DNA from: a virus
Taxonomy: Duplodnaviria > Caudoviricetes
Direction: 5' to 3' (one strand)
Length of the DNA: 56,057 bases
IMG/VR virus record: IMGVR_UViG_3300025875_000030
Span: 1-56,057 of that record
The position numbers and the translations under genes are program-made. Shown one piece after another: positions 12,262 through 31,092 of this stretch. Below the pieces are notes generated by a model. It ran no database searches. It had not been told where the DNA came from and saw nothing but the letters and a program-made list of their open reading frames with translations. Positions within the stretch are counted from its first letter, which is position 1; each line of letters opens with the position of its first letter.

Positions 12262-12289
12262 AAAAAAGCCCTGCATATACAGGGCTTTT
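12262..12289. terminator. Intrinsic terminator after SSB
   Basis: aaaagccctg/cagggctttt. Confidence 0.75.
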
Positions 12290-12290
12290 A

Positions 12291-13114: not shown

Positions 13115-13128
13115 TGTTTCAGTTTTTT

Positions 13129-13563: not shown

Positions 13564-13599
13564 GGCTATAAGTAATTAAAGGGGCATTAAGCCCCTTTG

Positions 13600-14226: not shown

Positions 14227-14243
14227 AATATAATAATTAAAGA

Positions 14244-15334: not shown

Positions 15335-16130
15335 GGGTTTGAGGAAATTGGCGTATTTGCAAGCTGCATGGAAATTCTGAAATATCCCCGCCGTGCCTGT
15401 CTTTTAACTTAAGCTGTTGGGCAAGGTGTGTGCCCATTTGTTTCACGAAAACAGGAGTGTTTGATTGATTACATTGCTCCACAATTCTAAGCATCCAAGC
15501 AACCTGATTTGGTCGGTATCTCCAATCTCCATTATCATTGCCGCTTTCTCCCCCAACAATAACCCAATCAATGCCATCCAGCAAGCTTATAATATAAGGC
15601 TCGTTTTTATCTTTCCTGCCATTTACATCAAACTCCAATGGCCCAAGTAATGGCTCCGCGGATATGAATGTTGTTTTTATGCCGGGAAAGGCAGCCAACT
15701 CAATGAGTGTCTTAACGCGGTGCAACTGCTTTCCTGTTTCAACAGATACACCAATCCAAACCTGTTGCCAGCCATCTCCCCAATCAGGAGGCAAGTTCTC
15801 TGCAATACGTTCCGGGCGTTTTGTTAGTATCTGCCAATTAAGATGAGGATTATCCCGGATAATGCCCCATGCCCATGCTCTCCACTCATCCGCCTCCTCA
15901 ATAAAGAAATCACTCCAAGAGCATGTAAATATTTTATCTCCCGGCTTGGCTTGCTTGAGCACTTTGTTGATTGTTTTTTGTGCCACTTGGAGCACATCAG
16001 TTGGCTCCTTGCCATACCGTTCCTGATCCCGGAACATATAACAAAATTTACAACCCGGGCTCACTTTCTTGCAGCCGGTCCAAAAATTAACCGTGTGATC
16101 AGTCCATTGTATTTTACTGTTTTCTGCCAT
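15318..16130 (-). CDS. DUF5131 (phage Gp37/Gp68) family protein with three-Cys motif
   Basis: IQWTDHTVNFWTGCKKVSPGCKFCY, QILTKRPER, SAEPLLG, WVIVGGESG, FVKQMG. Confidence 0.9.
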   Translation of the reverse strand: MAENSKIQWTDHTVNFWTGCKKVSPGCKFCYMFRDQERYGKEPTDVLQVAQKTINKVLKQAKPGDKIFTCSWSDFFIEEADEWRAWAWGIIRDNPHLNWQILTKRPERIAENLPPDWGDGWQQVWIGVSVETGKQLHRVKTLIELAAFPGIKTTFISAEPLLGPLEFDVNGRKDKNEPYIISLLDGIDWVIVGGESGNDNGDWRYRPNQVAWMLRIVEQCNQSNTPVFVKQMGTHLAQQLKLKDRHGGDISEFPCSLQIRQFPQTHGQNI

Positions 16131-16135
16131 AATGT

Positions 16136-16951
16136 TTAAAATAATTCGTTTCTGTAAATTCTCTTTTCAATGATATGAGCATACTCCTCTGAAATTTCAC
16201 TCCCTATGTAGTTTCTCCCAAGCCTCTCCGCAACCTTTGGCGTTGTGCCGCTCCCGGTAAAACAATCATAAACCAAATCTCCCTCATTGCTCCAACTGAT
16301 TATGTGATCCTTGGCAAGAAGTTCCGGAAATATTGCCGGGTGCTCATAAGCAACATCATCCTTTGTGCTGTATCCCTTTCCGTTGTTGTACCTCCAAATG
16401 TTACTCCTGTAACCGTATTCAGAAACAACCCAAGCCTCTGCATCCTGTAACTCTCCATCTGTTTTGCGTGTGGATGGCTTTCCAAAATTAGTATGCCCGG
16501 CCCATCTGTTTTTTTTGTCTTTTATGAGGTTGATGGTTTTGGGCTTTCCTTTGCTGAAAACAAACATATACTCAAATATTTGGCTATATCGGGTGCTTTT
16601 TTCATTTGCTGGGTATGCCGCGCCATTCTTTTCATATATCATGGTATCATGCAGATTAAAGCCCAAACTCATAAAATAAAGGGCTTGCTTAAAGCTGGTG
16701 CCGCTTTCAGAGCCATCAATTACCGCATCCCCAACAACCCACACCAAAACTCCGCCCTCTTTTGTAACCCGGTAAAGTTCTTTGGCAATATCCTCAAATG
16801 GAAAGCTATAGCCTTTGTAATCTCTTAAGTTGTCATAAGGAGGAGAGGTAACAGTTAAATCCACGAACTCCCCGGGCATCCGGCCCATGGTATCCAAACA
16901 ATTCTCAAAGTAAATTTTATTTATCTCCATCCTTATCCGGTTGTTTATCAT
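16136..16951 (-). CDS. Beta-class amino DNA methyltransferase, probably N4-cytosine (likely start MEINK at 16930)
   Basis: TSPPY catalytic motif before DCFTGSGTT SAM motif; HPAIFP. Confidence 0.9.
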   Translation of the reverse strand: MINNRIRMEINKIYFENCLDTMGRMPGEFVDLTVTSPPYDNLRDYKGYSFPFEDIAKELYRVTKEGGVLVWVVGDAVIDGSESGTSFKQALYFMSLGFNLHDTMIYEKNGAAYPANEKSTRYSQIFEYMFVFSKGKPKTINLIKDKKNRWAGHTNFGKPSTRKTDGELQDAEAWVVSEYGYRSNIWRYNNGKGYSTKDDVAYEHPAIFPELLAKDHIISWSNEGDLVYDCFTGSGTTPKVAERLGRNYIGSEISEEYAHIIEKRIYRNELF

Positions 16952-17270
16952 CTCTCATGTAAATCTCCTCCAGCGCCTTTGTTATGCCATAAGAAAGGGC
17001 ATCCTTTGGTGTGGCACAATTCTTTGGCAAAGTAAGCTGCTTGCCCTCTTTTACAAAATACAGGGTAATGATAAACTTGTTTGCCATTGCCGCGTTTACT
17101 TGCTCCAAGATGATTACTCCCTTATCCTCACAATATTTTTTTAGATAGGCAGCTTGCTCAATATCCGGCTTGCCATAAAATCCAAATTGTTCCGGATCGG
17201 TAACATCTGTATGATTTTTATTAAACCATGAGTTAAAATCGTGCCTCTGTTGTACGTTTGCTATTTCCAT
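16917..17270 (-). CDS. Hypothetical protein
   Basis: Operon packing. Confidence 0.6.
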   Translation of the reverse strand: MEIANVQQRHDFNSWFNKNHTDVTDPEQFGFYGKPDIEQAAYLKKYCEDKGVIILEQVNAAMANKFIITLYFVKEGKQLTLPKNCATPKDALSYGITKALEEIYMRDDKQPDKDGDK

Positions 17271-17605
17271 TGCTCTAATTGATTAAGTTTTATTTTTCGT
17301 TCTTCAAGTAATTTCTCCATTTCATCCCGGATGCCCTGCATGGTTTTAATGTTGGCAAGCCGGTTGTTTGCATTGGGCTCTGTAGTGGTTACATTAAATA
17401 GCCTTTCATGCTCCAGCTTAAGGAGGTTAAATGAAAAATCAATCTCATCACATTCCTTGCAAGTTTTTTCAAAGGCTTCAAGCCTTTTAGCTTTCTCCTC
17501 ATCAGTAAACACCCTCCCCATGGGCCGGGGCTTGGATAATGCCCAAAGCCCAATAATGAGTATAAGCACAATAAGGGCTATAAAAGCCCAAATAAAGTAA
17601 TTCAT
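17261..17605 (-). CDS. N-terminally anchored coiled-coil membrane protein
   Basis: Hydrophobic N-terminal helix. Confidence 0.65.
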   Translation of the reverse strand: MNYFIWAFIALIVLILIIGLWALSKPRPMGRVFTDEEKAKRLEAFEKTCKECDEIDFSFNLLKLEHERLFNVTTTEPNANNRLANIKTMQGIRDEMEKLLEERKIKLNQLEQWK

Positions 17606-17606
17606 G

Positions 17607-17939
17607 TTAGTAGTTTATAGAGTTATAAATTTCATCTTTGGTAATACCCGCATCAAATAACTCATCCCCATCCTTGTACACAAGTACACTATCAATGGTA
17701 ATATCAGATATTTCATAATTGATGCCGCCGCCCTCTGTAACTCCCCATTCAGAGTGATAATTCCCGGCGGAAATCTCCTCCCGGGTTCTTGCAGTTAATT
17801 CAACATACATTGTGTATTGGGCACCATCACAATGTGCATAGCTTTCCAATAATATATGTTGATCGTTTTCATCTTGATAATCAAATTTTGTTGTAATATC
17901 ATCAAGGTTTTTAATAAGCTGGGTTTTTATACTTTCCAC
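17607..17939 (-). CDS. Acidic hypothetical early-type protein (GTG start)
   Basis: First gene after the promoter at 17969. Confidence 0.65.
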   Translation of the reverse strand: MESIKTQLIKNLDDITTKFDYQDENDQHILLESYAHCDGAQYTMYVELTARTREEISAGNYHSEWGVTEGGGINYEISDITIDSVLVYKDGDELFDAGITKDEIYNSINY

Positions 17940-17968
17940 GATATAAAATTTTACTGTTTATGTTTGAG

Positions 17969-18000
17969 CAAATATATAAAATATTTTATATTCTAAGCAA
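17969..18000 (-). promoter_or_regulatory. Early-type promoter with perfect 18-bp palindromic operator
   Basis: caaatata 17969-17976; ATATAAAATATTTTATAT 17974-17991; caa 17998. Confidence 0.75.
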
Positions 18001-18009
18001 TAAAATATT

Positions 18010-18537
18010 TTAATTAAATAAGTTTTTCGGTGCATCTCCAACTATCTTGCCCGTTAACCAATCAGGATCCTCCTCCAGCTTTATCCTCCCAAAACTTACA
18101 ATGCATAATGCATCAGAGTTGGACAAGGTAACTTTAACCTCCGGGTAATGTTGTTGGGCATAATCTTTATATCTCTTTTTCCGTATCTGTTTACTCTCTC
18201 CCTTTACCCTTGTTAGTAAAGCGCCCTGCCAGCTTGAGGAGTGAACCTCACAAAATGGGAGGCTGTTTGTTTTCAGGAGAGTTTTAAGGATGGTGTAATT
18301 TTCCATCATCTTGGCAATGGCAAACTTTTTACCGGGAGCATCATCCGCGCCGCCTGCAAAATGGCTTACTCTCTCAATAAAAACAATTGCGTTTTCAAAG
18401 GTTTCTCTTAGGTATCCAAAATATTCATTTGTGGCATCCGCCCCCTTTGGCATCTTAACGGCTGTTGCCTTGCCATCCGTATAAATAGCAATTCCTCCGC
18501 TTGCCCCGGGATCAATCCCGATAATTGTTTTTTTCAT
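18010..18537 (-). CDS. RuvC-like Holliday junction resolvase
   Basis: IIGIDPGASGGIA, VFIERV, SDALCI. Confidence 0.8.
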   Translation of the reverse strand: MKKTIIGIDPGASGGIAIYTDGKATAVKMPKGADATNEYFGYLRETFENAIVFIERVSHFAGGADDAPGKKFAIAKMMENYTILKTLLKTNSLPFCEVHSSSWQGALLTRVKGESKQIRKKRYKDYAQQHYPEVKVTLSNSDALCIVSFGRIKLEEDPDWLTGKIVGDAPKNLFN

Positions 18538-18731
18538 GCTGTGATGATTTTGTTTAATTGTTCTCTGTACACTTTTTTGCTGGTGCCAAGCTTAACATAA
18601 AACTTGCCATCTTTCTGCTTATGGAAAATAAATCCATCCAAATCCCTCAAGGCTTTTTTATATTGCTCTTTGGTAACTTCAATCTCCTGATTGTATGCAG
18701 GCAATTCCGGTTTTTCAATACTGTTTTTCAT
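18534..18731 (-). CDS. Hypothetical protein
   Basis: ATGA coupling. Confidence 0.6.
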   Translation of the reverse strand: MKNSIEKPELPAYNQEIEVTKEQYKKALRDLDGFIFHKQKDGKFYVKLGTSKKVYREQLNKIITA

Positions 18732-18740
18732 AGTTTCTTT

Positions 18741-19733
18741 TTAAAATGGCACATCATCATGCGGTTTCTTGCTATCTGTACTATCAGATTTATTTGTTTT
18801 TTTGGCATCCTTACCAAACGCCTCAAGCTGCTGGGGATTTTCCTTGCCCTTTGCCGGGGCTGCCTTTACCGGCGCTTGCTGATCGTGGGTGTATGGCAAT
18901 CCATTTATATCAATACTCATAAGGAAATCATCAAACATTTTCCCTCTTGATACTCCGCATCTAACTTTTACGGTGTTAAAGTTAATAATGTTCCCATCCT
19001 TATCTGTAAGAGGATCAATAAATATCAGGGTTTCAGCTTTCTTAGTTACAGATGATCCAAGGTGCCCGGTTGCTTTGTCGTTGCCAAAGGTTTTATGTAT
19101 AACCACGCAAATATGTATTTTTAGTTCATCAGTCCACTTAAGGAGATAGCTGGCAACTTCATTACTCAAAACAAGATTATTTGCATCATTAAGTAAATCC
19201 GCAATTCCATCAATAAAGGCAAGCTTAATCTTTCCGGCGTGTGGGCCTTTGGTAAACATCCAATCAATAAGCTGTACCCTTTGTACAGGAGTAAGATTAC
19301 GGGTGTATATTGGCTCATAATTCTTGTAAGGTGCCCCAACTATTATTTCAGTTCTTTTAAAGGTTCTACGGGCATAATATTTACCCTGTTCCGTATCTAT
19401 GTCATAAATATAATCCTCCTCAACCCTGTGCCCCGTAATGTGTGGAGCCTTAAGGTTTGAACTCCCCCCCATGTATGAGGCACACAACAAAGATTTAAAA
19501 AATGATTTCTTTGTTTTGGATGGTGCCACAATACAACTAAACTCCCCCTCCGTACATATTGGGATGTGATTGTTATGGCTATCCGTGCCAATAGAGAGTA
19601 ATATTTTTGGATGAGGAACCTCTTGAGTTAAATCAATCCGGCAACTTTTGTAAACGGCGGCCAGGTCCGGAACGGGCTCCGCGCCGGAGTTTTTATCCTC
19701 CTGCTTTTTTTTCTCAATTTTCTGTAGTGCCAT
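18741..19733 (-). CDS. RecA-fold ATPase, RepA/AAA_25-like helicase
   Basis: APSKTKKS Walker A variant, IDTEQG, FIDGIADL, VIH..GHLGS..KAET. Confidence 0.75.
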   Translation of the reverse strand: MALQKIEKKKQEDKNSGAEPVPDLAAVYKSCRIDLTQEVPHPKILLSIGTDSHNNHIPICTEGEFSCIVAPSKTKKSFFKSLLCASYMGGSSNLKAPHITGHRVEEDYIYDIDTEQGKYYARRTFKRTEIIVGAPYKNYEPIYTRNLTPVQRVQLIDWMFTKGPHAGKIKLAFIDGIADLLNDANNLVLSNEVASYLLKWTDELKIHICVVIHKTFGNDKATGHLGSSVTKKAETLIFIDPLTDKDGNIINFNTVKVRCGVSRGKMFDDFLMSIDINGLPYTHDQQAPVKAAPAKGKENPQQLEAFGKDAKKTNKSDSTDSKKPHDDVPF

Positions 19734-20322
19734 TCTCTTTTGGTTCTTTGTTAGTGTATTTTAATAACCATTGTAAATCATGCTCTTTATCCTCATACCT
19801 GTGAAGTATCTCACTTAAAAAGTGGTTTAGTTTCTCATGTATCTCCGGCATCTCATACATATTGGTTTCAAGGTGCTCAAGAAATAACTTGTGATTTTCA
19901 GGATTTTTAAAGATTTCCTTATTGTTCCTGTACTCCTCCCTCACTTTTTCGGGATCAAGTTTGTTGCCGGGCTCCAGCATCTCCCAAAATGTACATTGCG
20001 CCCCTATTGCATCAAAAAAACCATTTAGGGAATACATATCCATCAAGCTTTTAAATCTTTGGTAATGGTGCTCCAAAGGAACCTCAAGGATGTGCATGAT
20101 TTCTTTTTCTGCAAACTTGTTATCCCCTTTGTAATGAGGGAGTAGATTGTTATAAATATACATGGCAAGTTTGGCAAAATGATGGTTGCGGTGTAACCTC
20201 TCCTCTTTCTGCATGTTTACCCACTCAATAACAAAGTTTAGGGCATCAACATCTGCATCATTACACTTGTGCCCATTGCTTACTGTATATGTAAGCCGGT
20301 TCATTGCCTTTAATAAGTTCAT
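19714..20322 (-). CDS. Hypothetical protein in replication module
   Basis: Between initiator and helicase. Confidence 0.7.
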   Translation of the reverse strand: MNLLKAMNRLTYTVSNGHKCNDADVDALNFVIEWVNMQKEERLHRNHHFAKLAMYIYNNLLPHYKGDNKFAEKEIMHILEVPLEHHYQRFKSLMDMYSLNGFFDAIGAQCTFWEMLEPGNKLDPEKVREEYRNNKEIFKNPENHKLFLEHLETNMYEMPEIHEKLNHFLSEILHRYEDKEHDLQWLLKYTNKEPKENGTTEN

Positions 20323-20325
20323 AAT

Positions 20326-21084
20326 CTATGCTGTTTTTTTATGCCTAAAATTCTTTGATGCAATAAGCTTTGGCATTTGTTCCCTAAGCTTTGAAGTGCT
20401 TAGTATGTTTGTTTTCCAAAACTCCCCGGCTGGGCTATCAAGATACTCATAAGCATCCCGGAGGTTATCCATTGTGAACTCATCACGCTCCACACAAAGG
20501 CGGATGGGATCAACATAGTTTTTGTAAGTGGCATTTTTTTGGTCCCGGATTGGTGCCTCTTTCTCTGTTAGGTTTTTAATAAATAGATTTCTAAAATGTT
20601 CCGCAATCTCAAAGTATTTTATCTGATCACTTGAAAGTTTTACCTCAAACCTTGGAGTAATTATTTGAGTTCTGTCATGGCTTATTGACAATTCACACAT
20701 TCTTATTTTATATAAATCTTTTATAGTATATAAAAGTTTATCATTAGTATTATTAAGAGGAGTAGTTTTTCCGCCGCGGGTTTTTACCGCGTCGGAAAAA
20801 TTAGGATACGGGTTTAATTCTATTTCAACATTTCCAAAAGCCCCCCCCTCTTTTTTAACCTGATATGTGGTTATCCATCCTTTATCAATAAGTTCTTTCA
20901 TGTATTTAATCCGGGTATCCTTTGAGCAATTTAAATCATTTTCAATTAAAGATGTTCTAAAAACCCAATTTTCAGGTTTAGAGCACAAATACACAAATAA
21001 AAACCTCGCATCTCTTGATATTGAATTATCATTTATCAAGCCGTTTGGCACTTGTGTAAAACTTTTTTTAATCTTGTTTTCCAT
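20326..21084 (-). CDS. Replication initiator protein (N-terminal wHTH)
   Basis: FTQVPNGLIND..ISRDARFLFVYLCSKPENW; C-terminal FWKTNILSTSKLREQ. Confidence 0.8.
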   Translation of the reverse strand: MENKIKKSFTQVPNGLINDNSISRDARFLFVYLCSKPENWVFRTSLIENDLNCSKDTRIKYMKELIDKGWITTYQVKKEGGAFGNVEIELNPYPNFSDAVKTRGGKTTPLNNTNDKLLYTIKDLYKIRMCELSISHDRTQIITPRFEVKLSSDQIKYFEIAEHFRNLFIKNLTEKEAPIRDQKNATYKNYVDPIRLCVERDEFTMDNLRDAYEYLDSPAGEFWKTNILSTSKLREQMPKLIASKNFRHKKTA

Positions 21085-21099
21085 GGTTCTCTGTTTTGT

Positions 21100-21975
21100 T
21101 TAAGCCGCCTTTCCGTTAAGAGTAATTGTATCATAATACTTTAATGCATACGGGATACGATCATACAACTCCTCAATCTTTGTATCATCCCTATGATACA
21201 CAATTGTTTTTACTCTCTCCTCTTTTGTAAAGGCTGGATTTGTTGAGTAAATTAAGTTGGTGTGTAGCTGGTTAAACAACTCTTGATGCTCCTCAAGGGT
21301 ATCATCAATTATACCATGAGCATAAGCAAGCTTTCTCCTCTCACTTTCAAAAATATGAGGAGGGCAATCCAAGAGAACATACTTGATATGGAACTCATCA
21401 CAACCATACAACTCCATATACACCCTGCCTTGCCATTCATAATATTTATCCTCCCCAGCAGCCATGAAAGTGTTTGCATCCCATGAGCATTTGGTATCAT
21501 AAACAATCTTTCTCCTCCTTATCTTGTGAAGTATATCCGCCTCCCCGGTTAATACGCCGTTATTCTTTCTCTCTGTATTTTTTCGGTAATAAACACCATC
21601 AACATCACAAAGCAGAGAAATTGCAGCCTCCTCATTGTATTGCCCTTTCTCAAGGTACTTTGATTTAGCCATACTCTTAATGCCTTTCTCTCTATAAAGC
21701 CACATCTCCCGGATCATTGCCTTGGCTGTATCAGATAACTCAAATGGGGCGTTTACTTTTGCAATAAGTTCATTAAGGGTTTTCTCCTGATTTGGTGTTA
21801 AAGCCTTGGATTTGGCAACAGCATTATTAAAATCATCCCTCATCTTAAACAGCCTCTCATACTCTGCATATTGGTTTGGAGTTACAACCTTGCCCCTGCC
21901 ATCTGTCATTAACGCCCCGCAACTTGAGGCTCTAAACAACAGTTTTCTCTTGTTTTGTTTTACTAATATTTCCAC
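21100..21975 (-). CDS. YqaJ/lambda-exonuclease-like recombination nuclease (GTG start)
   Basis: FRASS, KGQYNEEAAI, TGEADI..DTKCSW, WQGRVYM; adjacent to RecT. Confidence 0.8.
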   Translation of the reverse strand: MEILVKQNKRKLLFRASSCGALMTDGRGKVVTPNQYAEYERLFKMRDDFNNAVAKSKALTPNQEKTLNELIAKVNAPFELSDTAKAMIREMWLYREKGIKSMAKSKYLEKGQYNEEAAISLLCDVDGVYYRKNTERKNNGVLTGEADILHKIRRRKIVYDTKCSWDANTFMAAGEDKYYEWQGRVYMELYGCDEFHIKYVLLDCPPHIFESERRKLAYAHGIIDDTLEEHQELFNQLHTNLIYSTNPAFTKEERVKTIVYHRDDTKIEELYDRIPYALKYYDTITLNGKAA

Positions 21976-21984
21976 GGTAAAGAT

Positions 21985-22971
21985 TTATTTTTTGTTACTT
22001 ATTTCTGCCAGCTTTGCATTATACTCATCCCGGGTTTCATCATCAACATCCGCCTCACATTGTCTTAGCCCGGCAACTGTTTTTGAGTTTGCAATGTGGT
22101 TCCTCACTCTTGCCCTTATCTCATTTTGATTATTTTCTTGCAGAGGGATGAAATTATTATCATTGCTTGGGTTATCCAAGTACCTAACATTTTTGCCATC
22201 ATAATCCTCAATAACCGCCTGATCTGTTGTGATGGCTTTTATAATATCAACTGACTTTGGCCCGAACTTTCCAAGCAACAACTTGAGAACGGTTTTTTTG
22301 CTCATATCATCTTTATCCTCCGCCCATATCCCGGTGCCGTTTTTGTAGGTTTTACTGTATTTCCTTGCATGAGCCTCAATCTTATCAATTGGCATAAAAA
22401 ACTGTTTCTCAAAGCCATTTGCAAGGCGGAAATAAGCAACATATCCAATGATAGGCAAAGCCTCTCTTTTTGCCAAGTCCTGTACCCACTCATAGGAAAT
22501 ATCTCCGCTTAGGAAATCCGTATAAACCAACTCCCCCTGCCTTACATCAATGGCATTAATCCTAACATAATCCTTTGTTCTATGGCATAATTCAATTATA
22601 CCCTTATATCCTATCTGAAATTGAGCAACAGTTCTCCATTGGGGAGGATTTGTGCCTTGTATTTTTTCATTATAAGGGATGATGTAAGCAAGCCCAAGAT
22701 TTGGATCAATTGGCAGCTTAAGAGTTGCAGCAACAGCCGCCGCCATCAATATTGTTTGGGGCTCCGCGTTTTTTAGTTTGTCGCTATTCTGCACACAATT
22801 TAAAACGCTCATAAGGAATGCAGGGGAGCCATCTCCAAGTATCTGCTTAAAACGTGCCTGTACCTCCTCATCCTTAATCATAAGCTTAAGAGGGCGCGGC
22901 TGGGCCGGTTGCAAGGCTGTTGCCTCTTGTGCCGCTGGTGTGTTTTGGTTTACCTCTGACATTTTACTCAC
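21985..22971 (-). CDS. recT: RecT-family single-strand annealing recombinase
   Basis: LPIDPNLGLAYIIPY, AQFQIGYKGIIEL, MSKKTVLKLLL. Confidence 0.9.
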   Translation of the reverse strand: MSKMSEVNQNTPAAQEATALQPAQPRPLKLMIKDEEVQARFKQILGDGSPAFLMSVLNCVQNSDKLKNAEPQTILMAAAVAATLKLPIDPNLGLAYIIPYNEKIQGTNPPQWRTVAQFQIGYKGIIELCHRTKDYVRINAIDVRQGELVYTDFLSGDISYEWVQDLAKREALPIIGYVAYFRLANGFEKQFFMPIDKIEAHARKYSKTYKNGTGIWAEDKDDMSKKTVLKLLLGKFGPKSVDIIKAITTDQAVIEDYDGKNVRYLDNPSNDNNFIPLQENNQNEIRARVRNHIANSKTVAGLRQCEADVDDETRDEYNAKLAEISNKK

Positions 22972-23224
22972 TTTGAATGGTTATGAAATCTTTTACATCA
23001 AGCCCGGACATTTCAGACATTGTAATTATCTGCTTAAGGATAACGGGCCCGTTACCGCCTTTAAGGTTCCCCAAGGTTATGGGGCTAACACTTATCTTTT
23101 CAGCCAATCCCTTTTGATTTAGCTGTTTTAAATCCGGGTTCTTTTCGTTGTATGTATCAATAACTTTGTTAATGTCAACATACACACCCGTTTTCCTCTT
23201 TTTAGGAGCATTGTTATTATTCAT
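22964..23224 (-). CDS. XRE/Cro-like HTH regulator
   Basis: LNQKGLAEKISVSPITLGNLKGG. Confidence 0.7.
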   Translation of the reverse strand: MNNNNAPKKRKTGVYVDINKVIDTYNEKNPDLKQLNQKGLAEKISVSPITLGNLKGGNGPVILKQIITMSEMSGLDVKDFITIQSE

Positions 23225-23262
23225 AATGGTTTTTATTAAGCTGGCTTGATGGGCTGCCAGCG

Positions 23263-24459
23263 TTAGCCCTGTTTATTGTGTATTATGCTCAATCCCTCCG
23301 GCTTTTTTACCCGGCTCAATGCCACATAAAGTTGCCCCTCCGCAAAGCACGGGAGAGATAAATCAATTGTTAACTCATCAAATGTTAGCCCTTGTGATTT
23401 GTGGATAGTAAGGGCATAAGCAAGCTTAATAGGGAGTTGCGTAATGCTTGCAATCTCTTGTAACTCCAACTCTCCTAATGCCTCATTCAAAACATACTCC
23501 TCCTTAGTGAATTTGAAGTAATCCAGCGGATGCAAAACCTTTCCAACCTCAATAAAATATTTCTCATCCGTGTGAGGCTGGTATCTGAAAATGCCCAATG
23601 TTCCATTAACAAGCTTATTGTTTTTGCTGTTAACCAAATACATTATTTTGCAACCATCTTTAACCTTGATTTCCAAATCAACATTAAAATCCGCTGCATT
23701 GATCTTGCCATCAACAATTGCATTAAAAGTAAATGCCTCCCCGGGAACGCTGTTAAAGCCCTCAAGATTGTACTTGTGTACTGTTGCAACATGAGGAGCC
23801 AAAATAACACCCTTTCTCTCTCTGTTTATAAATTGGCGGAAATAAGGAGCCCTTAAGCCATCCCTCACTAAGTTTAAATTTTCTATAAACTCCGGATCAT
23901 CTTGCCTCTGCATCTCCTGTAACTCTATGTTAAGGGTGTTTAATCCTTTGTAACATCCAGCTTGATTGAAAGTGTAACCGCTGTAAGTTTCTAACATTAC
24001 GCTTTTAAAATTATCATCCGCGACAATTCCAAGCTGTTTTAAATCCCCAACAAAAATTATCTGTTTCTTGAATATGCTCCCACACCCGTTTTTTATCAAA
24101 GTCCAATTTATTGCATCAAGAATATCCGGCCTTACCATGCTTACCTCATCTATTACAATAACCTTTGCCATTTTTAAAACCAGCCTCTTGGCGGGCTTTA
24201 AAAATCTGCAACTTTCAGAGGTTAATACTCCATGTATTCCAAGCCCAAATGTTGAGTGTATTGTTGCTCCTCCCAAGTTGTTTGCCGCAATGCCTGTTGG
24301 GGCAACAGCAATAACCGCCTTTCCCTTTTTTCTCAATCTCTCAATAACATCTTTCACTATAAAGGTTTTCCCGGTTCCCGCCTTTCCTGTTAGAAAAACA
24401 TTTCTCCCGCTCTCCACGGCATCCACAAATAATTGTTGGCTTTTAGAATATGTGCTCAT
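23263..24459 (-). CDS. PIF1-family (SF1B) DNA helicase
   Basis: GKAGTGKT, APTGIAA, DEVSM, GDLKQL, AYALTIHKSQGLT, GQLYVALSRV. Confidence 0.92.
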   Translation of the reverse strand: MSTYSKSQQLFVDAVESGRNVFLTGKAGTGKTFIVKDVIERLRKKGKAVIAVAPTGIAANNLGGATIHSTFGLGIHGVLTSESCRFLKPAKRLVLKMAKVIVIDEVSMVRPDILDAINWTLIKNGCGSIFKKQIIFVGDLKQLGIVADDNFKSVMLETYSGYTFNQAGCYKGLNTLNIELQEMQRQDDPEFIENLNLVRDGLRAPYFRQFINRERKGVILAPHVATVHKYNLEGFNSVPGEAFTFNAIVDGKINAADFNVDLEIKVKDGCKIMYLVNSKNNKLVNGTLGIFRYQPHTDEKYFIEVGKVLHPLDYFKFTKEEYVLNEALGELELQEIASITQLPIKLAYALTIHKSQGLTFDELTIDLSLPCFAEGQLYVALSRVKKPEGLSIIHNKQG

Positions 24460-24659
24460 TATTTTACTGTTATAATTTCAAATGGATAAATTGGCTCCGG
24501 CTCAAGAGGAATGATAACCCTATCAAACGGGTTCTCATAAGTTTTTGTGAGTTCACTCAATGGCTTATCAAAATCCGGATGCTTGGCATCAACTTTAAAT
24601 GTAATGTTACGCCTTGATATTATTGTAATCTTGGGATAAGTGTTATCAGGATTTTCCAC
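24459..24659 (-). CDS. Hypothetical early-type protein (GTG start)
   Basis: First gene after the promoter at 24684; coupled to the helicase. Confidence 0.6.
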   Translation of the reverse strand: MENPDNTYPKITIISRRNITFKVDAKHPDFDKPLSELTKTYENPFDRVIIPLEPEPIYPFEIITVK

Positions 24660-24683
24660 GGCCTAATGTTTTTATGTTTGATG

Positions 24684-24716
24684 CAAATATATAAAATATT
24701 TTATATCGTAAACAAA
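24684..24716 (-). promoter_or_regulatory. Early-type promoter with perfect palindromic operator
   Basis: caaatata 24684-24691; ATATAAAATATTTTATAT 24689-24706; caaa 24713. Confidence 0.75.
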
Positions 24717-24736
24717 TTATTTTTTTTATTGTGAGT

Positions 24737-24770
24737 AAAAAAAATACCGCCCTTGTGGAGAGCGGTATTT
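24737..24770 (-). terminator. Intrinsic terminator closing the predicted sRNA
   Basis: aaataccgc/gcggtattt stem, 8-T tract on minus strand. Confidence 0.75.
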
Positions 24771-24822
24771 AAAACAGTAAAATTTTTCTTGGAATAAAAT
24801 CTATTTGTTACCGTGGAATAAC
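24737..24822 (-). ncRNA. Predicted ~85-nt trans-acting antisense sRNA
   Basis: Promoter TTG-N19-TATATTTG (24827-24856), terminator 24737-24770, no ORF; segments complementary to many phage start regions. Confidence 0.6.
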
Positions 24823-24983
24823 AATGCAAATATAACCATCTTTTTGTTATTTGCAATAAAATATATTTTATATCCTAAATAAGTAATTTTTTTGCCTCCT
24901 GTTGAACTATCAGGATGCTCCCCGTGTTGAGAGCCTTGCCAGCAGAAAAAGCCTCTTAAATCAAAAAAACGGTTTTAATTAGT

Positions 24984-25628
24984 TTAAAACAGTTTCTTTG
25001 AGAGGGTAAATCCAATATAAGCCTCCTTTGTGGGCACATGATAAAGAACTCCGGCACCAAACCCAACATCATTTTTGCGGATGTACTCAAGCCCTAACAT
25101 TACCTGACTATTATTTATAACATCCTTGGAGAAAAAAGCCCCTCCTTTCACAAAAAGCCCGGAGCCATGTATTGTTGTTTTCTCCGTTGTTGTGTTGGTA
25201 ATTGTCTTTTCATCTACAATAGCAGTTACATCATTAAGGTAAACTTTGCCATCTGAAACAATCCGGCTGTATATAGTGGCGTTTTTGAGGCGCGTGGTAT
25301 CCTTGTAGGTGTTTAACTCCTTAACGTTGCTTAAATCGCCTGCATTTAGCTTTGATGTATCTTTTACCTCAATAACGGTTTCTTTCCCGGTTTTCTCATC
25401 CCGGATGATAATGTAAGGAGTTCTTTCCGGCTTTTGATTGGCTAAGGCATTGTTAACCGCCTGATCAATGGTTTTTACAATGTCAATGGTTTGTGTGGTT
25501 GTGGTTTCTTTCTCCACGCTGGCACCGGTGCCCGGTCCGGATCCATCTCCACACTCTTTAAACAAGAGGTAAATAACAATGGCTGCAAGTACAACCATCA
25601 TAACCCTTTCAAATGTGATGTTTTTCAT
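24984..25628 (-). CDS. Spanin-like lysis protein (N-terminal TM/Cys, C-terminal beta-strands ending in Phe)
   Basis: Follows the endolysin; start re-assigned to MKNITF because a promoter lies at 25653. Confidence 0.5.
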   Translation of the reverse strand: MKNITFERVMMVVLAAIVIYLLFKECGDGSGPGTGASVEKETTTTQTIDIVKTIDQAVNNALANQKPERTPYIIIRDEKTGKETVIEVKDTSKLNAGDLSNVKELNTYKDTTRLKNATIYSRIVSDGKVYLNDVTAIVDEKTITNTTTEKTTIHGSGLFVKGGAFFSKDVINNSQVMLGLEYIRKNDVGFGAGVLYHVPTKEAYIGFTLSKKLF

Positions 25629-25664
25629 TATGCTGAATTTTAAGTTATTGAGCAAATATAAAAC

Positions 25665-25697
25665 AAAAAGCCCCAGCACGGATGCCGGGGCTTTTTC
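25665..25697. terminator. Bidirectional-looking terminator after the endolysin
   Basis: aaaaagcccc..ggggcttttt. Confidence 0.75.
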
Positions 25698-25743
25698 ACT
25701 TTCACGCATATTGGATAACAAACACAGAGGCGCAAATATAAAA

Positions 25744-26475
25744 TTATATTTTAATCTTTTGCCCTATCTCAATAAGATTTGCCTGTTTAATGCTGTTTTT
25801 ATCCATTAGCTTTTGCACCGTTGTATTATACTTGGCAGCAATCTTGCTCAAGGTATCCCCCTTGGCAACCGTATATGTGCACTCCAACTCCCCCGCGCCA
25901 TCTGCTGCATGCTTGTGTATCACTTTGGCAATTGCCTTGGCTAAGGCGGGCTTATTTCGCTCATACTTTGTCATATCATTGAAGTTGGAAATAAAACAAA
26001 CCTCAATGAGATTGTTGATGCCCGGGAGCCTCATCCATCCAAGTTTGCCCCGGGCGCTTTCAAGTTCAGTTATAACACCTTTCTTGCCTCTCAATACAAT
26101 TCCCAACGTGTTACTAATTGCATAAGCCAAATCCTCCGCCAAAGCCCTCTCCTTTTGATCCGGAACGCCCGGGATTAAAACCTCTGTACCTGTTGCCTTG
26201 GGAGTAGCTGCATTAAAATGTATATCAATTACAAGAGAGTTCTCATCAACCTTGCTTTTGAAAACGGCAATTGTATCACTTAGGATACTATCATCTTTAT
26301 CTGTAACAGGAGTGATGCCCAGCGCCTCCAATTCTTTTGTTATTAGGGCTCTTAGCTTTGCAGCCTCCACGCCCTCAACATACCCATTGCCTGCCGCTCC
26401 ATTATCAATTGCTTTGCCTTGAGGGTTTGTTCCTTTCTTGCTGGAATGGCCAGCGGATAAAAATACTTTTTTCAT
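25744..26475 (-). CDS. Endolysin: N-acetylmuramoyl-L-alanine amidase (Amidase_3) plus LysM
   Basis: [25 protein letters not shown]; [16 protein letters not shown] LysM. Confidence 0.92.
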
Positions 26476-26477
26476 GG

Positions 26478-26765
26478 CTATTCTGTTACTTCAATAAAAT
26501 GCTTATGAAACTCCTCCGCCTGCATGATGATAGCGCCATCCGCCTCAAGTACTAAGAACTCTCCCGGCACAAAATCAAAAACCTCCCCATTTTGGTTTAC
26601 TATAAGATATTTTTCATCATTCTCATGTGTAATCTTAACAATTATATCTCCAATAACTATTTCCGCATGCCAATGGGGATGAGGAGTGTTTTTTTTCATG
26701 TGCTCAACAAACTCCTCAAATGAGTAAGCTGTTACTAAATCTTTTTTCTCTGTAAATGTTGACAT
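26478..26765 (-). CDS. Hypothetical protein
   Basis: Downstream of promoter-like caaatata at ~26789. Confidence 0.65.
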
Positions 26766-26811
26766 AATAATATATTTTAAAGTTTTAACAAATATATAAT
26801 AAAAAAGCCCC

Positions 26812-27168
26812 TTAATGGGGCTTCACTTGTGGTGTATCAAACTTAAATAAACTATGCCAAAGTTGTTTAAAGTTTCGGCTCCGCTCTATGGCATGGCCTT
26901 TCATAATAAATAGGGTGTGTGTGTAAAAAATCCACCATCTTAAATAATACGCATCAAGCACCTTATCCGGATCTGAATATCTATTACAAAAATAAAAAGT
27001 CATTAAAAGCAAAGTTACCCACAAGTAAACTCTTGTGGTTGCCGGGAGGGTACTCTTTATCTTGAGAAATCCTATCCATGCATGTGAATACATGATTATA
27101 ATTATTGAGGAGGCTATCAGGTGCCACACAAATGGCAAGTTACTTAAGTGTTGATTTAGATCTTGCAT
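26812..27168 (-). CDS. Membrane protein, holin/antiholin candidate
   Basis: About 3 hydrophobic segments, lysis region. Confidence 0.55.
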   Translation of the reverse strand: MQDLNQHLSNLPFVWHLIASSIIIIMYSHAWIGFLKIKSTLPATTRVYLWVTLLLMTFYFCNRYSDPDKVLDAYYLRWWIFYTHTLFIMKGHAIERSRNFKQLWHSLFKFDTPQVKPH

Positions 27169-27175
27169 ATTTTAA

Positions 27176-27619
27176 TTATTTGCCCAATACCCTTGAAACA
27201 ACAACAGCACTCTTATCCCATAAAACATAAATCATCTGTTTTAATTTTTCATTGCTCTCTTTATCAAATAGTATCCTTATGATGGCAAATGATTTCAAAC
27301 CCATTATAAAGCCCAAGAACAAAGAAAGCCCGGTGCCGTATCCATTCTCCAAAGTGTATTCGTAGGTTAACCATACAAAGGAAAATGAAATAATTGGTGT
27401 GAGGAAAATAATAACATACTTTGTGCTTTTTTTAGTAACTGATTGATGTTCCATCACTATGGATATAACAGTTGTAAAAAAAACAATAGCAAGTACTTTA
27501 ATATCCATCTCGCTTAATCCTCCCCTGAACAATCCATCATGTAACTCCGCGGATGATAATACAAAAAGCAGGCTTGAAAATCCTGTATAGGTAAATTTTA
27601 AAAAGTATTTTCCAATCAT
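27176..27619 (-). CDS. Holin-like multi-TM protein (start MIGKYF)
   Basis: About 4 TM segments, charged C-terminus. Confidence 0.55.
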   Translation of the reverse strand: MIGKYFLKFTYTGFSSLLFVLSSAELHDGLFRGGLSEMDIKVLAIVFFTTVISIVMEHQSVTKKSTKYVIIFLTPIISFSFVWLTYEYTLENGYGTGLSLFLGFIMGLKSFAIIRILFDKESNEKLKQMIYVLWDKSAVVVSRVLGK

Positions 27620-27691
27620 TGCATCCGGGGTTAATAGTTTATTATTGCTCAAAAGTAAACATTTAATAAAACCTTATGAATTATTAACAAT

Positions 27692-27725
27692 AAAAAAAGC
27701 CCGCTTTTTGTCAAACGGGCTTTTT
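27692..27725. terminator. Intrinsic terminator
   Basis: aaaaagcccg/cgggcttttt. Confidence 0.7.
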
Positions 27726-27743
27726 ATCGGCTTTTTTTGCGCT

Positions 27744-28112
27744 TTATCTATTATCTGCAATATCTGTTTTTTTATCCACTATTGTTTGTATGCGGCTCTC
27801 TGTCTTACTCAATATACCTTGAAGTAAAGAGGAGCCTGTATATCCAACAAATATAAAAAAGAATTTTGCCCATTTGGTTATGCTTGGATATGCCCCTGTT
27901 GCTTCATCAAATATGAATATACCAATAGCAATTGCAATAATTGATGCCCCCAATGCAATCCAATCATCCCTAAAGTAATCCCCCACATTAAAGGGCATAT
28001 TTGCATTTTTAGCACGGGATTTCAGCGCTGGTAATTTCAAAACAAAAACATGGAACAACATGCCCAGCATGCCCCCAATAAATAAATCTAAGTGTAAATT
28101 TCCTGTAGTCAT
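27744..28112 (-). CDS. Holin-like 3-TM protein
   Basis: Three hydrophobic segments, GYTGSSLL, charged tail. Confidence 0.55.
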   Translation of the reverse strand: MTTGNLHLDLFIGGMLGMLFHVFVLKLPALKSRAKNANMPFNVGDYFRDDWIALGASIIAIAIGIFIFDEATGAYPSITKWAKFFFIFVGYTGSSLLQGILSKTESRIQTIVDKKTDIADNR

Positions 28113-28124
28113 TTGTATAATATA

Positions 28125-28289
28125 TTAATTAATAAAAAGCTTTTTCATGTACTTATCAATTATAAAGTAGTAAGACATAAACACCACAAAAAATAAAATT
28201 GACAATACCCGCGTATAAATGCAGTCAACAGTTAAGAGTATTATTTCAAATACTCCAAGGGCCAGCTTAAGGAGCAACATCTTTTTCAT
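28125..28289 (-). CDS. Small 2-TM protein (start MKKMLL)
   Basis: Hydrophobic; overlaps the end of the upstream gene. Confidence 0.45.
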   Translation of the reverse strand: MKKMLLLKLALGVFEIILLTVDCIYTRVLSILFFVVFMSYYFIIDKYMKKLFIN

Positions 28290-28623
28290 TTTGCTTATTC
28301 TTTGTTGGGTAATAAATGGCGTATAAAACAGCAGCAGCCGCAAAAAAATACTCATTGTATTGTACATCTGTTGGACTAAATATAAATTCATCTGCTAAGT
28401 TGTTTATAGTAAAAGCAAGAAAAATACAGGATATTGAGTGCTTTTTCATGCTAAAATAAAGGGCAAAAGCGGCACACACTAAGGCGGCGGCACTAACATA
28501 GTAGTAAGGTTTTCTTACTGATCCCAAAAACTCATACTTTGGGAATACATCCGGAAAGTTATAAGCTGCCAAAAATAAAATAATGGCAGCTATAACAAAT
28601 ACTTTTGGTTTACCCACGATCAT
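28267..28623 (-). CDS. 4-TM membrane protein
   Basis: Hydrophobic segments with polar INNLADEF motif. Confidence 0.6.
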   Translation of the reverse strand: MIVGKPKVFVIAAIILFLAAYNFPDVFPKYEFLGSVRKPYYYVSAAALVCAAFALYFSMKKHSISCIFLAFTINNLADEFIFSPTDVQYNEYFFAAAAVLYAIYYPTKNKQNEKDVAP

Positions 28624-28744
28624 CCGGGCGTTTTCCGATTATTGCGGTAAGGCCTGCATTTCTTAAAGTGGTTGCGGCATCCTGTATCGCTCTTTCCTCA
28701 ATCGCCGTTAATCCTTTGTCCGCATCTAAATAAACTGTGTTCAT
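28610..28744 (-). CDS. 44-aa peptide MNTVYLDADK...IIGKRPDDRG (missing from the ORF track)
   Basis: Translated by hand; A-rich leader and TACTTTTG promoter at 28783-28790. Confidence 0.65.
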   Translation of the reverse strand: MNTVYLDADKGLTAIEERAIQDAATTLRNAGLTAIIGKRPDDRG

Positions 28745-28793
28745 GATTTTAATTTTTTTAGTTAATAAAATGTTACAGTTAACAAAAGTAAAT

Positions 28794-28821
28794 AAAAAAA
28801 CCAGCCGTGTTTGGCTGGTTC
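28794..28821 (-). terminator. Intrinsic terminator
   Basis: aaccagcc/ggctggtt with T-tract. Confidence 0.7.
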
Positions 28822-28840
28822 TATAAAATATAATTTGAAT

Positions 28841-29140
28841 TTAATCAAATAATGCGTATCCGGTTATTATACCCACTATTCCGGTAACAATATCAACAAC
28901 ATCAATTTTGCCCTTTGATATTCTTACCTGTATGTACTCAACCATGTATATTACAAACAACACGGCAAACCCGGCAACTGTTTTTGGTATCTGTAGAAAT
29001 TCCTCCCATCCAAACCAATGGATACATTTAAGGGTTATCCAATAGCCAAACAGGCAGCCAAATAAGTGTGCCCATGGTTTCCATCCCTTTAAATTTCCAA
29101 TAGTGAAAAAACCGGGAGCCTCTTTTTTTGTGGTTGACAT
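28841..29140 (-). CDS. 3-TM membrane protein
   Basis: Hydrophobic segments; H..E..Q..D polar pattern. Confidence 0.6.
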   Translation of the reverse strand: MSTTKKEAPGFFTIGNLKGWKPWAHLFGCLFGYWITLKCIHWFGWEEFLQIPKTVAGFAVLFVIYMVEYIQVRISKGKIDVVDIVTGIVGIITGYALFD

Positions 29141-29205
29141 AATTTTTTATTTTAAATATTTAATTGTTATAGCGCTTTTGCCGAATGTGAAGATTGATTT
29201 TAAAA

Positions 29206-31092
29206 TTAGTCTGTCCAATAATCAAACGTTAAATATAAAGCCCTACCGTTTGTTGCTGTTTGTGCCATTCTAAACTCGTAAATACCCGCTGTTTTTCTTA
29301 TAGTGCATCGAGCGGCAGCGGAAGCTGGTCCCGAGTTGGTTTCAGGACTATAAAAGCCATTTATTGCATAAACAACAGCGTCACTGGCGGTAAAATCTGT
29401 AATTGCCGCTGGAGTTGGTAATCCAGTAGGAAAGGGTACCGTAACGGCTGTATTTGCCGCTCCTGCTGTTGTGTAAAGTAGATTTAAACGGCCCGTGACG
29501 TGTTTGCCTACCTTGGTAGCCTGCCATGTTCCTGACAATGTTCCGCTCGGCGCTGTTGTACCGCTCCAAACAGGTGTTTGCGAGTATGTAGTTACAGGGT
29601 ATTCCGTATATACGGCAGCTATAGCGTTATTTGTGTAGGTGTCACGCGCCGCTGTATATGCCGTCGCTATCGATATAACCGGCATGGTCGTGCCTGTTGC
29701 TACATCAATTTGATTTGTAGTGCCGGTAACGCTTGTAACCGTTCCTGAACCGCCGCCGCCGCCTGCAACTGTTAAACTGACAAGTCCGGCGCTATCTGCT
29801 GTAACAGCTGTGCCGCCATTTACTGAAAATGATAATGGGATCGTGCCGCTATTATTGGGGAATTTTACATCCCTATTTGCAGTAAGTAAATCCGTTGTAA
29901 GTCTGGCGCCGTAATTTGTGTTATTGGCTATTATCCTGATATTGTTCTCACTGGTTAGGTTTATCTGATCGGAACTCATTGTCATAAAGCCTAACGGACT
30001 CATGTCAATATGTGCGCCCGTATCTCCTGAATCAGTATAAATATTAATGAACTGATCTATAAAAGCCTGCGGGCCTCCCTCCAACGCTTTTTGAAGTGAA
30101 ACGGAATACTTAACAAATTCAGTAGTTGCAGCCCTGTTGCTTTCATCACTTAATGGCGGTGTTGGAACTGTAACTACACCATCTGTGCCAACAGTTAAGC
30201 CGGTAAGTTCGTTATTCACTACAACAAATGAGCCTGTATCTAAAAGCCCAAGAGTTACGCCGCCCCCGCCTGTAGATGATATAGAAAAATCATCAACAAC
30301 AGCGTTAGGGCCGTTATTTAAAACTGACTGCAAATCTTGTGAGCCGCCTGCCGGAATATCATCTAAAGTGGCCACTTCTTCCCCGTTATAAGTCAAAATA
30401 CCGCCCCCACTATTAAGCGCAATACCTGTAGTACTGCCATTTATTAAAACCCCGCCAGCATTACCCGATATTGTTACCCCTGTTATATCATCAAATCCAA
30501 TCGTTCCCCCCGAGCCTGCGTTTATATTAAGATCCCCGGTTCCTTGTAGGTAAAGCGTTCCTGTAGTGTTAATATTTACATTTTCATTACCACTATATGA
30601 ACCGCCATTTTGTATGATTTCCTGAAGTGTATTACCGCTTAATCCTGCATTTGATATGGCTGCCGCTACCGTGCTATTTGTCGCAATAGTATCATTTTGC
30701 ATCAATGCTGGGAAATAAAGTTTAGTATTCATTAGCGGATTTATGAAATTTATATCCGTAATAAACCCGGTGCTTGTATTTGTAAAATTATAACCTAAAT
30801 GGTAATAAGACATTTTGTTATTTCCATTTGTAAGATTAATGGGGAGCCCGGATACATTTCCATTACCTAAAGTTGTATTTAAGTCCTGTGTTGATGCCTC
30901 TCCTGCAAAGATAGCCATCAAATAAGGCCAACTAACCTTTCTTACCATTCCGGTTGTTTTCTCCCTTACAAGGGGCTCAATTAGCGTTGTATCATTTAAA
31001 GTTGCCGGGGTTTCTGCAATCTTTAATGATGGCACTTTTGTTTGTGCAAATAAGCTGCTTGATAGCATCAATAAAAATAATAGCTTTTTCAT
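29206..31092 (-). CDS. Tail fibre / receptor-binding-like protein with N-terminal Sec-type signal peptide
   Basis: Gly/Thr-rich, LQ.V..NG repeats, GGGGSGTVTSV, fibre-tip-like C-terminus; MKKLLFLLMLSSSLFA-Q. Confidence 0.65.
   Translation of the reverse strand: MKKLLFLLMLSSSLFAQTKVPSLKIAETPATLNDTTLIEPLVREKTTGMVRKVSWPYLMAIFAGEASTQDLNTTLGNGNVSGLPINLTNGNNKMSYYHLGYNFTNTSTGFITDINFINPLMNTKLYFPALMQNDTIATNSTVAAAISNAGLSGNTLQEIIQNGGSYSGNENVNINTTGTLYLQGTGDLNINAGSGGTIGFDDITGVTISGNAGGVLINGSTTGIALNSGGGILTYNGEEVATLDDIPAGGSQDLQSVLNNGPNAVVDDFSISSTGGGGVTLGLLDTGSFVVVNNELTGLTVGTDGVVTVPTPPLSDESNRAATTEFVKYSVSLQKALEGGPQAFIDQFINIYTDSGDTGAHIDMSPLGFMTMSSDQINLTSENNIRIIANNTNYGARLTTDLLTANRDVKFPNNSGTIPLSFSVNGGTAVTADSAGLVSLTVAGGGGGSGTVTSVTGTTNQIDVATGTTMPVISIATAYTAARDTYTNNAIAAVYTEYPVTTYSQTPVWSGTTAPSGTLSGTWQATKVGKHVTGRLNLLYTTAGAANTAVTVPFPTGLPTPAAITDFTASDAVVYAINGFYSPETNSGPASAAARCTIRKTAGIYEFRMAQTATNGRALYLTFDYWTD

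Follow-up and report, generated by a model that had tools for sequence, protein, structure and literature searches.

A candidate phage-encoded small RNA complementary to the translation start regions of many genes of its own genome

The viral genome IMGVR_UViG_3300025875_000030 is a complete record of 56,057 bp with direct terminal repeats, and positions 1-56,057 were analysed here (this whole stretch is referred to as the window). In the gap that follows its lysis module, the minus strand contains a short candidate transcription unit (24856-24734), the predicted RNA of which is complementary to the start regions of about ten genes of the same phage. This complementarity is real and non-random, but it is known from one genome. 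Judging from the sequence, we propose that the unit is the gene for a trans-acting, bipartite antisense small RNA (sRNA) of ~85 nt that would mask the initiation regions of first cistrons, a reading whose probability we place a little short of one half.

An initial annotation of this DNA had described a minus-strand promoter (TTG-N19, 24827-24856) and a terminator that enclose ~85 nt without an open reading frame (ORF), and this arrangement was recovered in our analysis. By pattern scan, promoter-like sites in this phage are of the Bacteroidota type (TTG ... TAnnTTTG), and the sRNA promoter, TTG-N19-TATATTTG, combines a -33 TTG at 24856-24854, a 19-nt spacer and a -7 box at 24834-24827. The -7 box plus the next base, TATATTTGC, recurs at nine further minus-strand sites, all intergenic with the exception of 25740, which lies at a gene end. 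The intrinsic terminator (24734-24770) consists of a 12-bp stem (24770-24742), a 5-nt loop and a T run. The candidate RNA body (24737-24822, minus strand) is non-coding; it holds no ATG, and the sole ORF listed over the unit (24856-24701, TTG start) begins inside the -33 box. Its 5' end was placed by the usual spacing from a -7 box, and its 3' end lies within the T run. In silico, the locus has the promoter, the Rho-independent terminator and the lack of an ORF expected of an independent transcription unit. No Rfam 15 family matched the window at its gathering score; the best sub-threshold match in 24600-25000 reached 23 bits against a cut-off of 229, and such matches overlap the terminator.

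The predicted RNA has a minimum free energy of -19.9 kcal/mol, compared with -10.3 kcal/mol in shuffled sequences (z -3.57; none of 200 shuffles was equally stable). In the predicted fold, a 5' hairpin is followed by a long open middle and then by the terminator. The 5' hairpin (24805-24824) has a 6-bp stem and an 8-nt loop, UUCCACGG; this element, designated B' (24811-24818), sits in or near the loop, carries the genome's only plus-strand CGTGGAA, and is complementary to the CCGUGGAA/CGUGGAA loops found at start codons. The single-stranded middle contains a second, degenerate B'-like stretch (AUUUUAUUCCAAG, 24788-24800), whose predicted duplex spans the AUG of gene 7075. Further 3', the A' seed AAAAUUUUACUGUUUUAAA (24768-24786) is mostly unpaired, with its AAAAUUUUACUGUUUU in a single-stranded stretch immediately 5' of the terminator. 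A' and the motif A consensus are exactly complementary, and A' holds the sole plus-strand ACAGTAAAA in the genome as well as one of three exact 13-mer copies.

The unit occupies a 324-nt gap that separates the lysis module (stop at 24984) from the replication/recombination block, and its terminator is the first one 3' of the last lysis-module gene, which encodes a 214-aa membrane-type protein (25628-24984, minus strand). From the stop at 24984 to the unit, neither folding nor a terminator scan detected a terminator, and the fold of this stretch was like that of its shuffles (z -0.98). Since no terminator intervenes, lysis-module transcripts should end at the terminator of the unit, with A' and B' in their 3' untranslated region (UTR). 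Downstream of the unit, promoter 24691 precedes a 66-aa GTG gene, the start of which is a B site.

The partners of A' and B' are two motifs on the coding strand, which is the minus strand for all long ORFs of this phage (ORF list; 84 starts called). Motif A (AAAACAGTAAAAT) and motif B (CGTGGAA(A)) lie mostly at gene starts, and their sole plus-strand copies are within the unit. The A core ACAGTAAAA occurs 9 times against 0.77 expected (a count reached by 0 of 100 shuffles), and CGTGGAA occurs 9 times against 3.19 expected (reached by 1 of 100); for each, eight copies are on the coding strand and one is on the opposite strand, inside the unit. These lone plus-strand cores are 29 nt apart, and the random chance of a separation of <=60 nt is ~0.002. 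The position of motif A varies from -26 to +19 with respect to the start codon, which argues against a spacing-dependent ribosome signal. Six AT-rich consensus promoters (51394, 24691, 17976, 12198, 7635 and 2379) are each followed by a first gene that carries A and/or B. A site had initially been claimed for the first gene behind every early-type promoter; this holds for these six, but not for two similar lysis-module promoters (26796 and 25660).

The candidate RNA was then compared with 2000 dinucleotide shuffles of itself. Against coding-strand RNA it has 15 perfect antisense matches of at least 11 nt, which, as copies of two motifs, are not independent events; shuffled RNAs had a mean of 3.6, and none of the 2000 reached 15. 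Four matches of at least 13 nt were reached by 2 of 2000 shuffles, and one 16-nt match by 7 of 2000. Ten of the 15 matches fall within -35 to +20 of a called start, a zone that makes up 8.4% of the genome (84 starts; binomial P 3.5e-8). The initial annotation had named a lack of enrichment at start codons, relative to composition-matched shuffles, as a result that would speak against it, and enrichment was what we observed. Net cofold energies, which allow for the cost of unfolding both partners, were -10 kcal/mol or lower in 10 of 84 start regions compared with 16 of 736 interior windows (Fisher 1e-4), and -12 kcal/mol or lower in 6 of 84 compared with 6 of 736. Duplexes of -22 kcal/mol or lower were predicted for five of the 84 start regions, whereas shuffled RNAs averaged 0.13 and none of 300 reached five. 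By these measures, the exposed seed of the predicted fold appears to be complementary to target start regions beyond chance.

All predicted target sites are on the minus strand. In three genes (17939, 51326 and 12162), A precedes B, an order that matches B'...A' of the RNA in antiparallel pairing, and the initial annotation was right that they have both sites in the order of the RNA. The leader of gene 17939 (17934-17959), the first gene behind promoter 17976, combines a 15-nt A site (17945-17959) with a B hairpin at its GUG, giving a duplex energy of -24.1 and a net energy of -17.3 kcal/mol. The leader of gene 51326 (51321-51347) offers a 13-nt A site (51335-51347) plus B/GUG (net -15.8 kcal/mol), and that of gene 12162 (12157-12184) an 11-nt A variant (12174-12184) plus B/GUG (net -13.5 kcal/mol). 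B sites without A are predicted at the GUG start of the exonuclease at 21975 (21970-21980, 11 nt; net -18.6 kcal/mol), at GUG start 24659 (CCGUGGAA, 24654-24661; net -11.4 kcal/mol), which opens the first gene behind promoter 24691 and lies 160 nt downstream of the sRNA, and at GUG start 2025 (2020-2026; net -10.4 kcal/mol).

Among the sites for A', the longest match (16 nt, 10958-10973) runs into the AUG of the 434-aa gene 10959 (net -12.1 kcal/mol). This gene had been labelled a GHKL ATPase, a label that could not be upheld, as no Pfam family matched at E<=0.001 and the PHROG match is to a family of function unknown. Further A sites are found in the DUF5131 gene (start 16130; 16111-16123, 13 nt, +7 to +19; net -11.9 kcal/mol), at AUG 7597 (7598-7609, 12 nt, -12 to -1; net -11.9 kcal/mol), where a B-like UGUGGAAU stands upstream of the A site, at AUG 2342 behind promoter 2379 (2352-2363, 12 nt, -21 to -10), and at the PIF1 helicase AUG 24459 (24461-24471, 11 nt, -12 to -2); an A variant precedes AUG 11319 (11335-11345, 11 nt, -26 to -16). 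Every segment A match of the initial annotation (11-16 nt) reappeared at the same position and length, and family searches supported its PIF1 and DUF5131 labels. Missing from its list was the start region of the DUF6283 gene (AUG 7075; 7056-7100), in which three collinear complementary blocks (GTAAAATTT.., TTGGAAT and GTGGAAT) extend over ~45 nt. The duplex predicted there is the best of the 84 (-24.9 kcal/mol, net -14.3 kcal/mol), at a strength for which about one match is expected by chance.

CGTGGAA is found at six GTG starts (2025, 12162, 17939, 21975, 24659 and 51326), the same six C-GUG-GAA starts that had been reported, with the 11-nt match at 21970-21980. All six genes share C-GTG-GAA-A, and in 6 of 6 the GTG opens the ORF in frame (chance 0.0014). 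The 8-nt CGUGGAAA forms the loop of a weak, AU-rich predicted hairpin that displays the GUG start (2011-2034, 12148-12171, 17925-17948, 21961-21984, 24645-24668 and 51312-51335, minus strand), and the arms vary between genes with their complementarity kept. In an alignment of these six sequences, 73.8% of cells were paired compared with 60.3% in shuffles (8 of 500 reached this value), and the covariation score was 0.505 compared with 0.254 (4 of 500). This is moderate evidence, coming from six sequences. A GUG start in a hairpin loop would be an unusual initiation signal for a host that does not use Shine-Dalgarno pairing. The 5' hairpin of the sRNA is the mirror image of these start-codon hairpins, so that loop-loop contact between the two is possible.

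We propose that the RNA would dock on its target mRNAs by loop-loop contact of B' with B, by linear pairing of A' with A, or by both, inside -26 to +19. Docking would turn an unstructured, A-rich start region into a duplex and so block initiation, and with the first cistron untranslated the operon behind it would be silenced. We take the effect to be repression and not activation or stabilisation. With both anti-motifs in the 3' UTR of the lysis module, repression might also be coupled to late transcription. Initiation in Bacteroidia relies on an unstructured start region and upstream adenines (PMC6847099), and masking would fit a host whose Shine-Dalgarno-blind ribosomes need open, A-rich starts. 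The early shut-off suggested by the initial annotation is plausible as a role, the timing being conjectural. The gp3-type packaging protein (2550-3191) and the large terminase (52915-54555) flank the ends of the record; with packaging genes at both ends, the motif-bearing units 2379, 2025 and 51394 are located within or next to the genes for packaging and the head, and it is not obvious that they are early. The other role suggested at the outset, a lysis/dormancy switch, gained no support, as integrase and repressor families gave zero matches among the 37 proteins scanned out of 84 predicted.

Several points weigh against this proposal. An inverted duplication of an A+B leader would suffice, without any selection, to explain the complementarity, the mirror-image hairpin and the presence of A' and B' at one place. 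The perfect repeats of 12-16 nt exceed what an sRNA seed needs, which suggests that the motifs either have a function of their own in the mRNA or arose recently from a common source. Promoters of one class serve both the sRNA and its predicted targets, so that no obvious temporal switch is provided. The predicted pairing is AU-rich, and we know of no chaperone for such pairing. Bacteroides lacks Hfq (PMC13370968). At a weaker threshold, duplexes of -15 kcal/mol or lower were predicted in 10 of 84 start regions and in 299 of 1835 interior windows, which is no enrichment, and the signal therefore rests on ~ten strong sites. The 84 gene starts come from our own ORF picking with three manual corrections. 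No RNA runs containing positions 20001-30000 were listed. Finally, no relative covering the sRNA locus was found among viral contigs, genome contigs and GenBank phages.

A target leader, in comparison, could be traced to a relative. A 2-kb metagenome contig (L039) aligns to 17063-19025 with a nucleotide identity of 65-71%. While its flanking coding DNA has diverged to this extent, the leader of gene 17939 is nearly letter-for-letter the same in promoter, motif A and B hairpin (~900-1000, minus strand of the contig); protein similarity starts at the GTG codon of the 17939 homologue. This conservation shows that the target leader is under constraint, but does not show it for the RNA. DNA contigs of the probable source sample, compared with 7001-27000 at 80% likeness, showed no letter substitutions, and their only differences were two 1-nt deletions (18002 and 25681) outside the unit and the target sites.

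A second sRNA-like unit on the minus strand (25665-25740) served as an internal control. Its -7 box, TATATTTG, overlaps the amidase stop and is followed by ~45 nt and then by a 14-bp terminator (fold z -4.29), directly after which comes the -7 box of the next promoter. This unit has no multi-target antisense matches, which argues that complementarity is not a by-product of such promoter-terminator junctions. Its terminator lies inside a 245-aa ORF (TTG 25721), so that a start of that gene at ATG 25628 is likelier.

The main rival to the sRNA proposal is that the unit is a neutral relic, an inverted duplicate of an early leader (A plus B hairpin) inserted into the intergenic DNA where the lysis-module terminator lies; an RNA may then be made, with a complementarity that regulates nothing. 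In agreement with this, the unit resembles a leader when read on the opposite strand, with A, a decayed B-like copy (CTTGGAATAAAAT) and the B hairpin in turn, and any hairpin that is reverse-complemented becomes a hairpin with a complementary loop. A terminator is required at this place anyway, there being none between the stop at 24984 and the unit. However, both cores are intact (A' is the exact 13-nt consensus) though the spacer between them has diverged. A consensus promoter, with one of only ~ten such -7 boxes in 56 kb, precedes B' by 8 nt and is oriented so as to produce the antisense RNA, and the order of promoter-like and leader-like parts does not suit a simple inverted copy of a promoter and its leader. 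We regard a neutral inverted duplication as unlikely.

Alternatively, the unit could act in cis as an insulator. In read-through transcripts, from the lysis module or from promoter 24834, B' would pair back with the CCGUGGAA start of gene 24659, with the consequence that the first gene of the replication module would be translated only from its own promoter, 24691. The 5' hairpin region does have an 8-nt perfect complement with a 5-bp extension at the start of 24659 (-16.2 kcal/mol), and the tandem arrangement of promoter, terminator and promoter is in line with this reading. On the other hand, the strong terminator (12-bp stem, T run) should leave little read-through, and neither A', whose best partners are 7-27 kb away, nor the enrichment at multiple genes would be explained. 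We consider both the insulator and its proposed consequence very unlikely.

It is likewise improbable, in our judgement highly so, that A and B serve as signals bound by a phage or host protein, whether as translational operators or as duplex-DNA sites, with the inverted copy being one more DNA site or irrelevant. RNA-phage coat proteins and T4 RegA are examples of proteins that bind translational operators. Protein-bound operators typically show a conserved loop with variable, partly covarying stems, as seen here; the copies of the motifs are also long and exact, and the leader is conserved in L039. A duplex-DNA site fits poorly with the 8:1 strand bias of both motifs and with their linkage to start codons instead of promoters, and an RNA-binding protein would not recognise the complement. 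Protein signals of this kind are also compatible with an sRNA that masks them, and hence are only partly a rival. The idea that the AT-rich promoter palindrome is an operator of the phage, one that would activate the sRNA promoter as well, was dropped: the palindrome is not phage-specific, as the same 23-mer occurs in 35 metagenome stretches, of which just one (L039) is a relative.

Among known systems, the closest analogue of the window's motifs is the start-associated sequence (SAS) of cluster K mycobacteriophages, a 13-bp motif described in one orientation at the starts of genes in the genome's non-structural half (Pope et al. 2011, PMC3203893). The same text mentions a single inverted copy away from any start, gives the function as unknown and leaves open whether RNA or a protein binds (PMC3203893); in 2024 the role was still called 'ill-defined' (PMC11373665). 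Like SAS, the repeats of the window are asymmetric, adjoin the starts of a subset of genes in one orientation and have a single inverted copy away from a start. In contrast to motifs A and B, which lack GGAG and range from -26 to +19, SAS contains a Shine-Dalgarno core at a nearly constant 3-7 nt from the start (consensus GGGATAGGAGCCC); moreover, two motifs occur in the window, with motif B forming a hairpin at the start codon, they bear no sequence relation to SAS, and the hosts belong to different phyla. From sequence, the window's motifs are not members of the SAS family. No anti-SAS RNA is reported in the accessible parts of the mycobacteriophage papers on SAS (PMC3203893, PMC11373665).

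In mycobacteriophage Adephagia, a motif count in the genome gave 16 forward SAS copies and 1 reverse copy, the latter at JF704105 58682-58694 (38683-38695 in L177), in a gap of 432 nt that holds no gene and separates 92 from 93. The reverse copy lies downstream of a terminator-like hairpin and between 9-nt inverted repeats. A rightward transcript in this gap would display anti-SAS and so parallel the unit of the window by analogy, which makes it a lead and not a test. It is doubtful that phages in general combine start-associated motifs with one anti-motif RNA, transcribed from a promoter of its own and present in a late 3' UTR as well. If true, such a design would provide regulon-wide translational control without a protein repressor in Shine-Dalgarno-blind hosts, and it would account for the single inverted SAS copy of cluster K mycobacteriophages. 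For the window itself, a true sRNA would mean that one RNA is directed at the start regions of many genes of its own phage; it would supply 'start-associated' repeats, unexplained since 2011, with a function that can be tested, and would illustrate how bacteria with neither Hfq nor Shine-Dalgarno pairing can have their translation switched.

Two further analogies concern mechanism. The c4 RNAs of P1/P7 and the CI RNA of P4 are small phage RNAs in which at least two short exposed blocks are complementary to phage mRNA, and they block ribosome-binding sites or cause early termination; they are processed from the operon that they control and act on one transcript. The window RNA similarly has at least two complementary blocks in antiparallel order (B'...A' versus A...B in 17939, 51326 and 12162). 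Unlike c4 and CI, it would have its own promoter, and its target sites, at 2-51 kb, belong to at least six transcription units, so that it is not confined to one operon. The C4 family of Rfam stayed below threshold in the window. In T4, RegA (a translational repressor) and RegB (an endoribonuclease) are proteins that give post-transcriptional early shut-off through a short shared sequence. The likeness is that one phage factor acts on many early initiation regions, the difference being that the effector proposed here is RNA and not protein. Both c4/CI and RegA/RegB are analogies of mechanism.

Phage and bacterial sRNAs have been described in other settings. The lambda LPR1/PreS sRNA acts on host genes with Hfq (bioRxiv 10.1101/2024.10.31.621285), and the Bacteroides sRNAs are chromosomal (PMC7366714). 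Like them, the candidate has its own promoter, an intrinsic terminator, a single-stranded seed and start-region pairing, all of which are predictions in our case. Unlike the candidate, neither LPR1/PreS nor the Bacteroides sRNAs, in the text available, represent a phage RNA aimed at a set of its own start regions, and in the consulted portions of the literature on phage and Bacteroidota sRNAs we found no described phage RNA with such targets in Bacteroidota. The candidate, if confirmed, would be the first small RNA to be described from a phage of the Bacteroidota type, as far as searches of this partly accessible literature show.

Searches with the motif patterns and with neighbouring proteins covered several sequence collections. 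The A...B leader pattern occurred in 7 stretches of viral contigs, apparently coding sequence, and in 103 stretches of genome contigs, where 80 were fetched as loci and 0 of 80 aligned to the window. The B'...A' pattern occurred in 12 stretches of viral contigs, of which 11 are apparently coding and most likely chance matches. The remaining one is in an unrelated viral contig (L016, 5480-5720, plus strand), where two tandem sRNA-like units each have a -7 box, a small hairpin and a terminator; in the second unit, the distance from the -7 box to TTCCACGG is 8 nt, the same as in the window, and the terminator tail is TTTTACTGTTTT. Because this contig has no protein similarity to the window, the resemblance is probably chance. 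For PIF1, relatives were found at 12 loci in viral contigs (52-64% amino acid identity), with an upstream region that is not syntenic, and no relatives of the 245-aa and 330-aa neighbour proteins were found. The best match of the large terminase was at 58%. The closest isolated phages have Flavobacterium, Cellulophaga and Bacteroides as hosts and share <=57% amino acid identity. A 55.8-kb phage (G001) shares 3 of the 58 window proteins compared. In G001 and in the contigs L005 and L006, which share the PIF1 helicase (~62% amino acid identity), a different promoter-to-terminator RNA of ~100 nt lies directly upstream of PIF1 (3878-3990, plus strand, in L005 and L006). The G001 RNA was rejected as an equivalent of the candidate, having no multi-target antisense matches in its 55.8-kb genome. 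Two compensatory pairs in the terminator stem of this PIF1-upstream RNA tell two of the phages apart.

As to the layout of the genome, the large terminase (54555-52915, minus strand) precedes the portal, the major head protein and the tape measure, and the lysis module includes an amidase/LysM endolysin (26475-25744, minus strand). The replication/recombination block encodes the PIF1 helicase, RecT, an exonuclease, a methylase, DUF5131, an RNase T-like exonuclease and the gp3-type packaging protein. No tRNAs were found in the phage genome. At promoter 51394, a terminator-like hairpin with a T run comes directly after the promoter and before motifs A and B (51350-51416, minus strand). If transcription starts within its 5' arm, this hairpin would block read-through from the portal gene and spare transcripts from promoter 51394.

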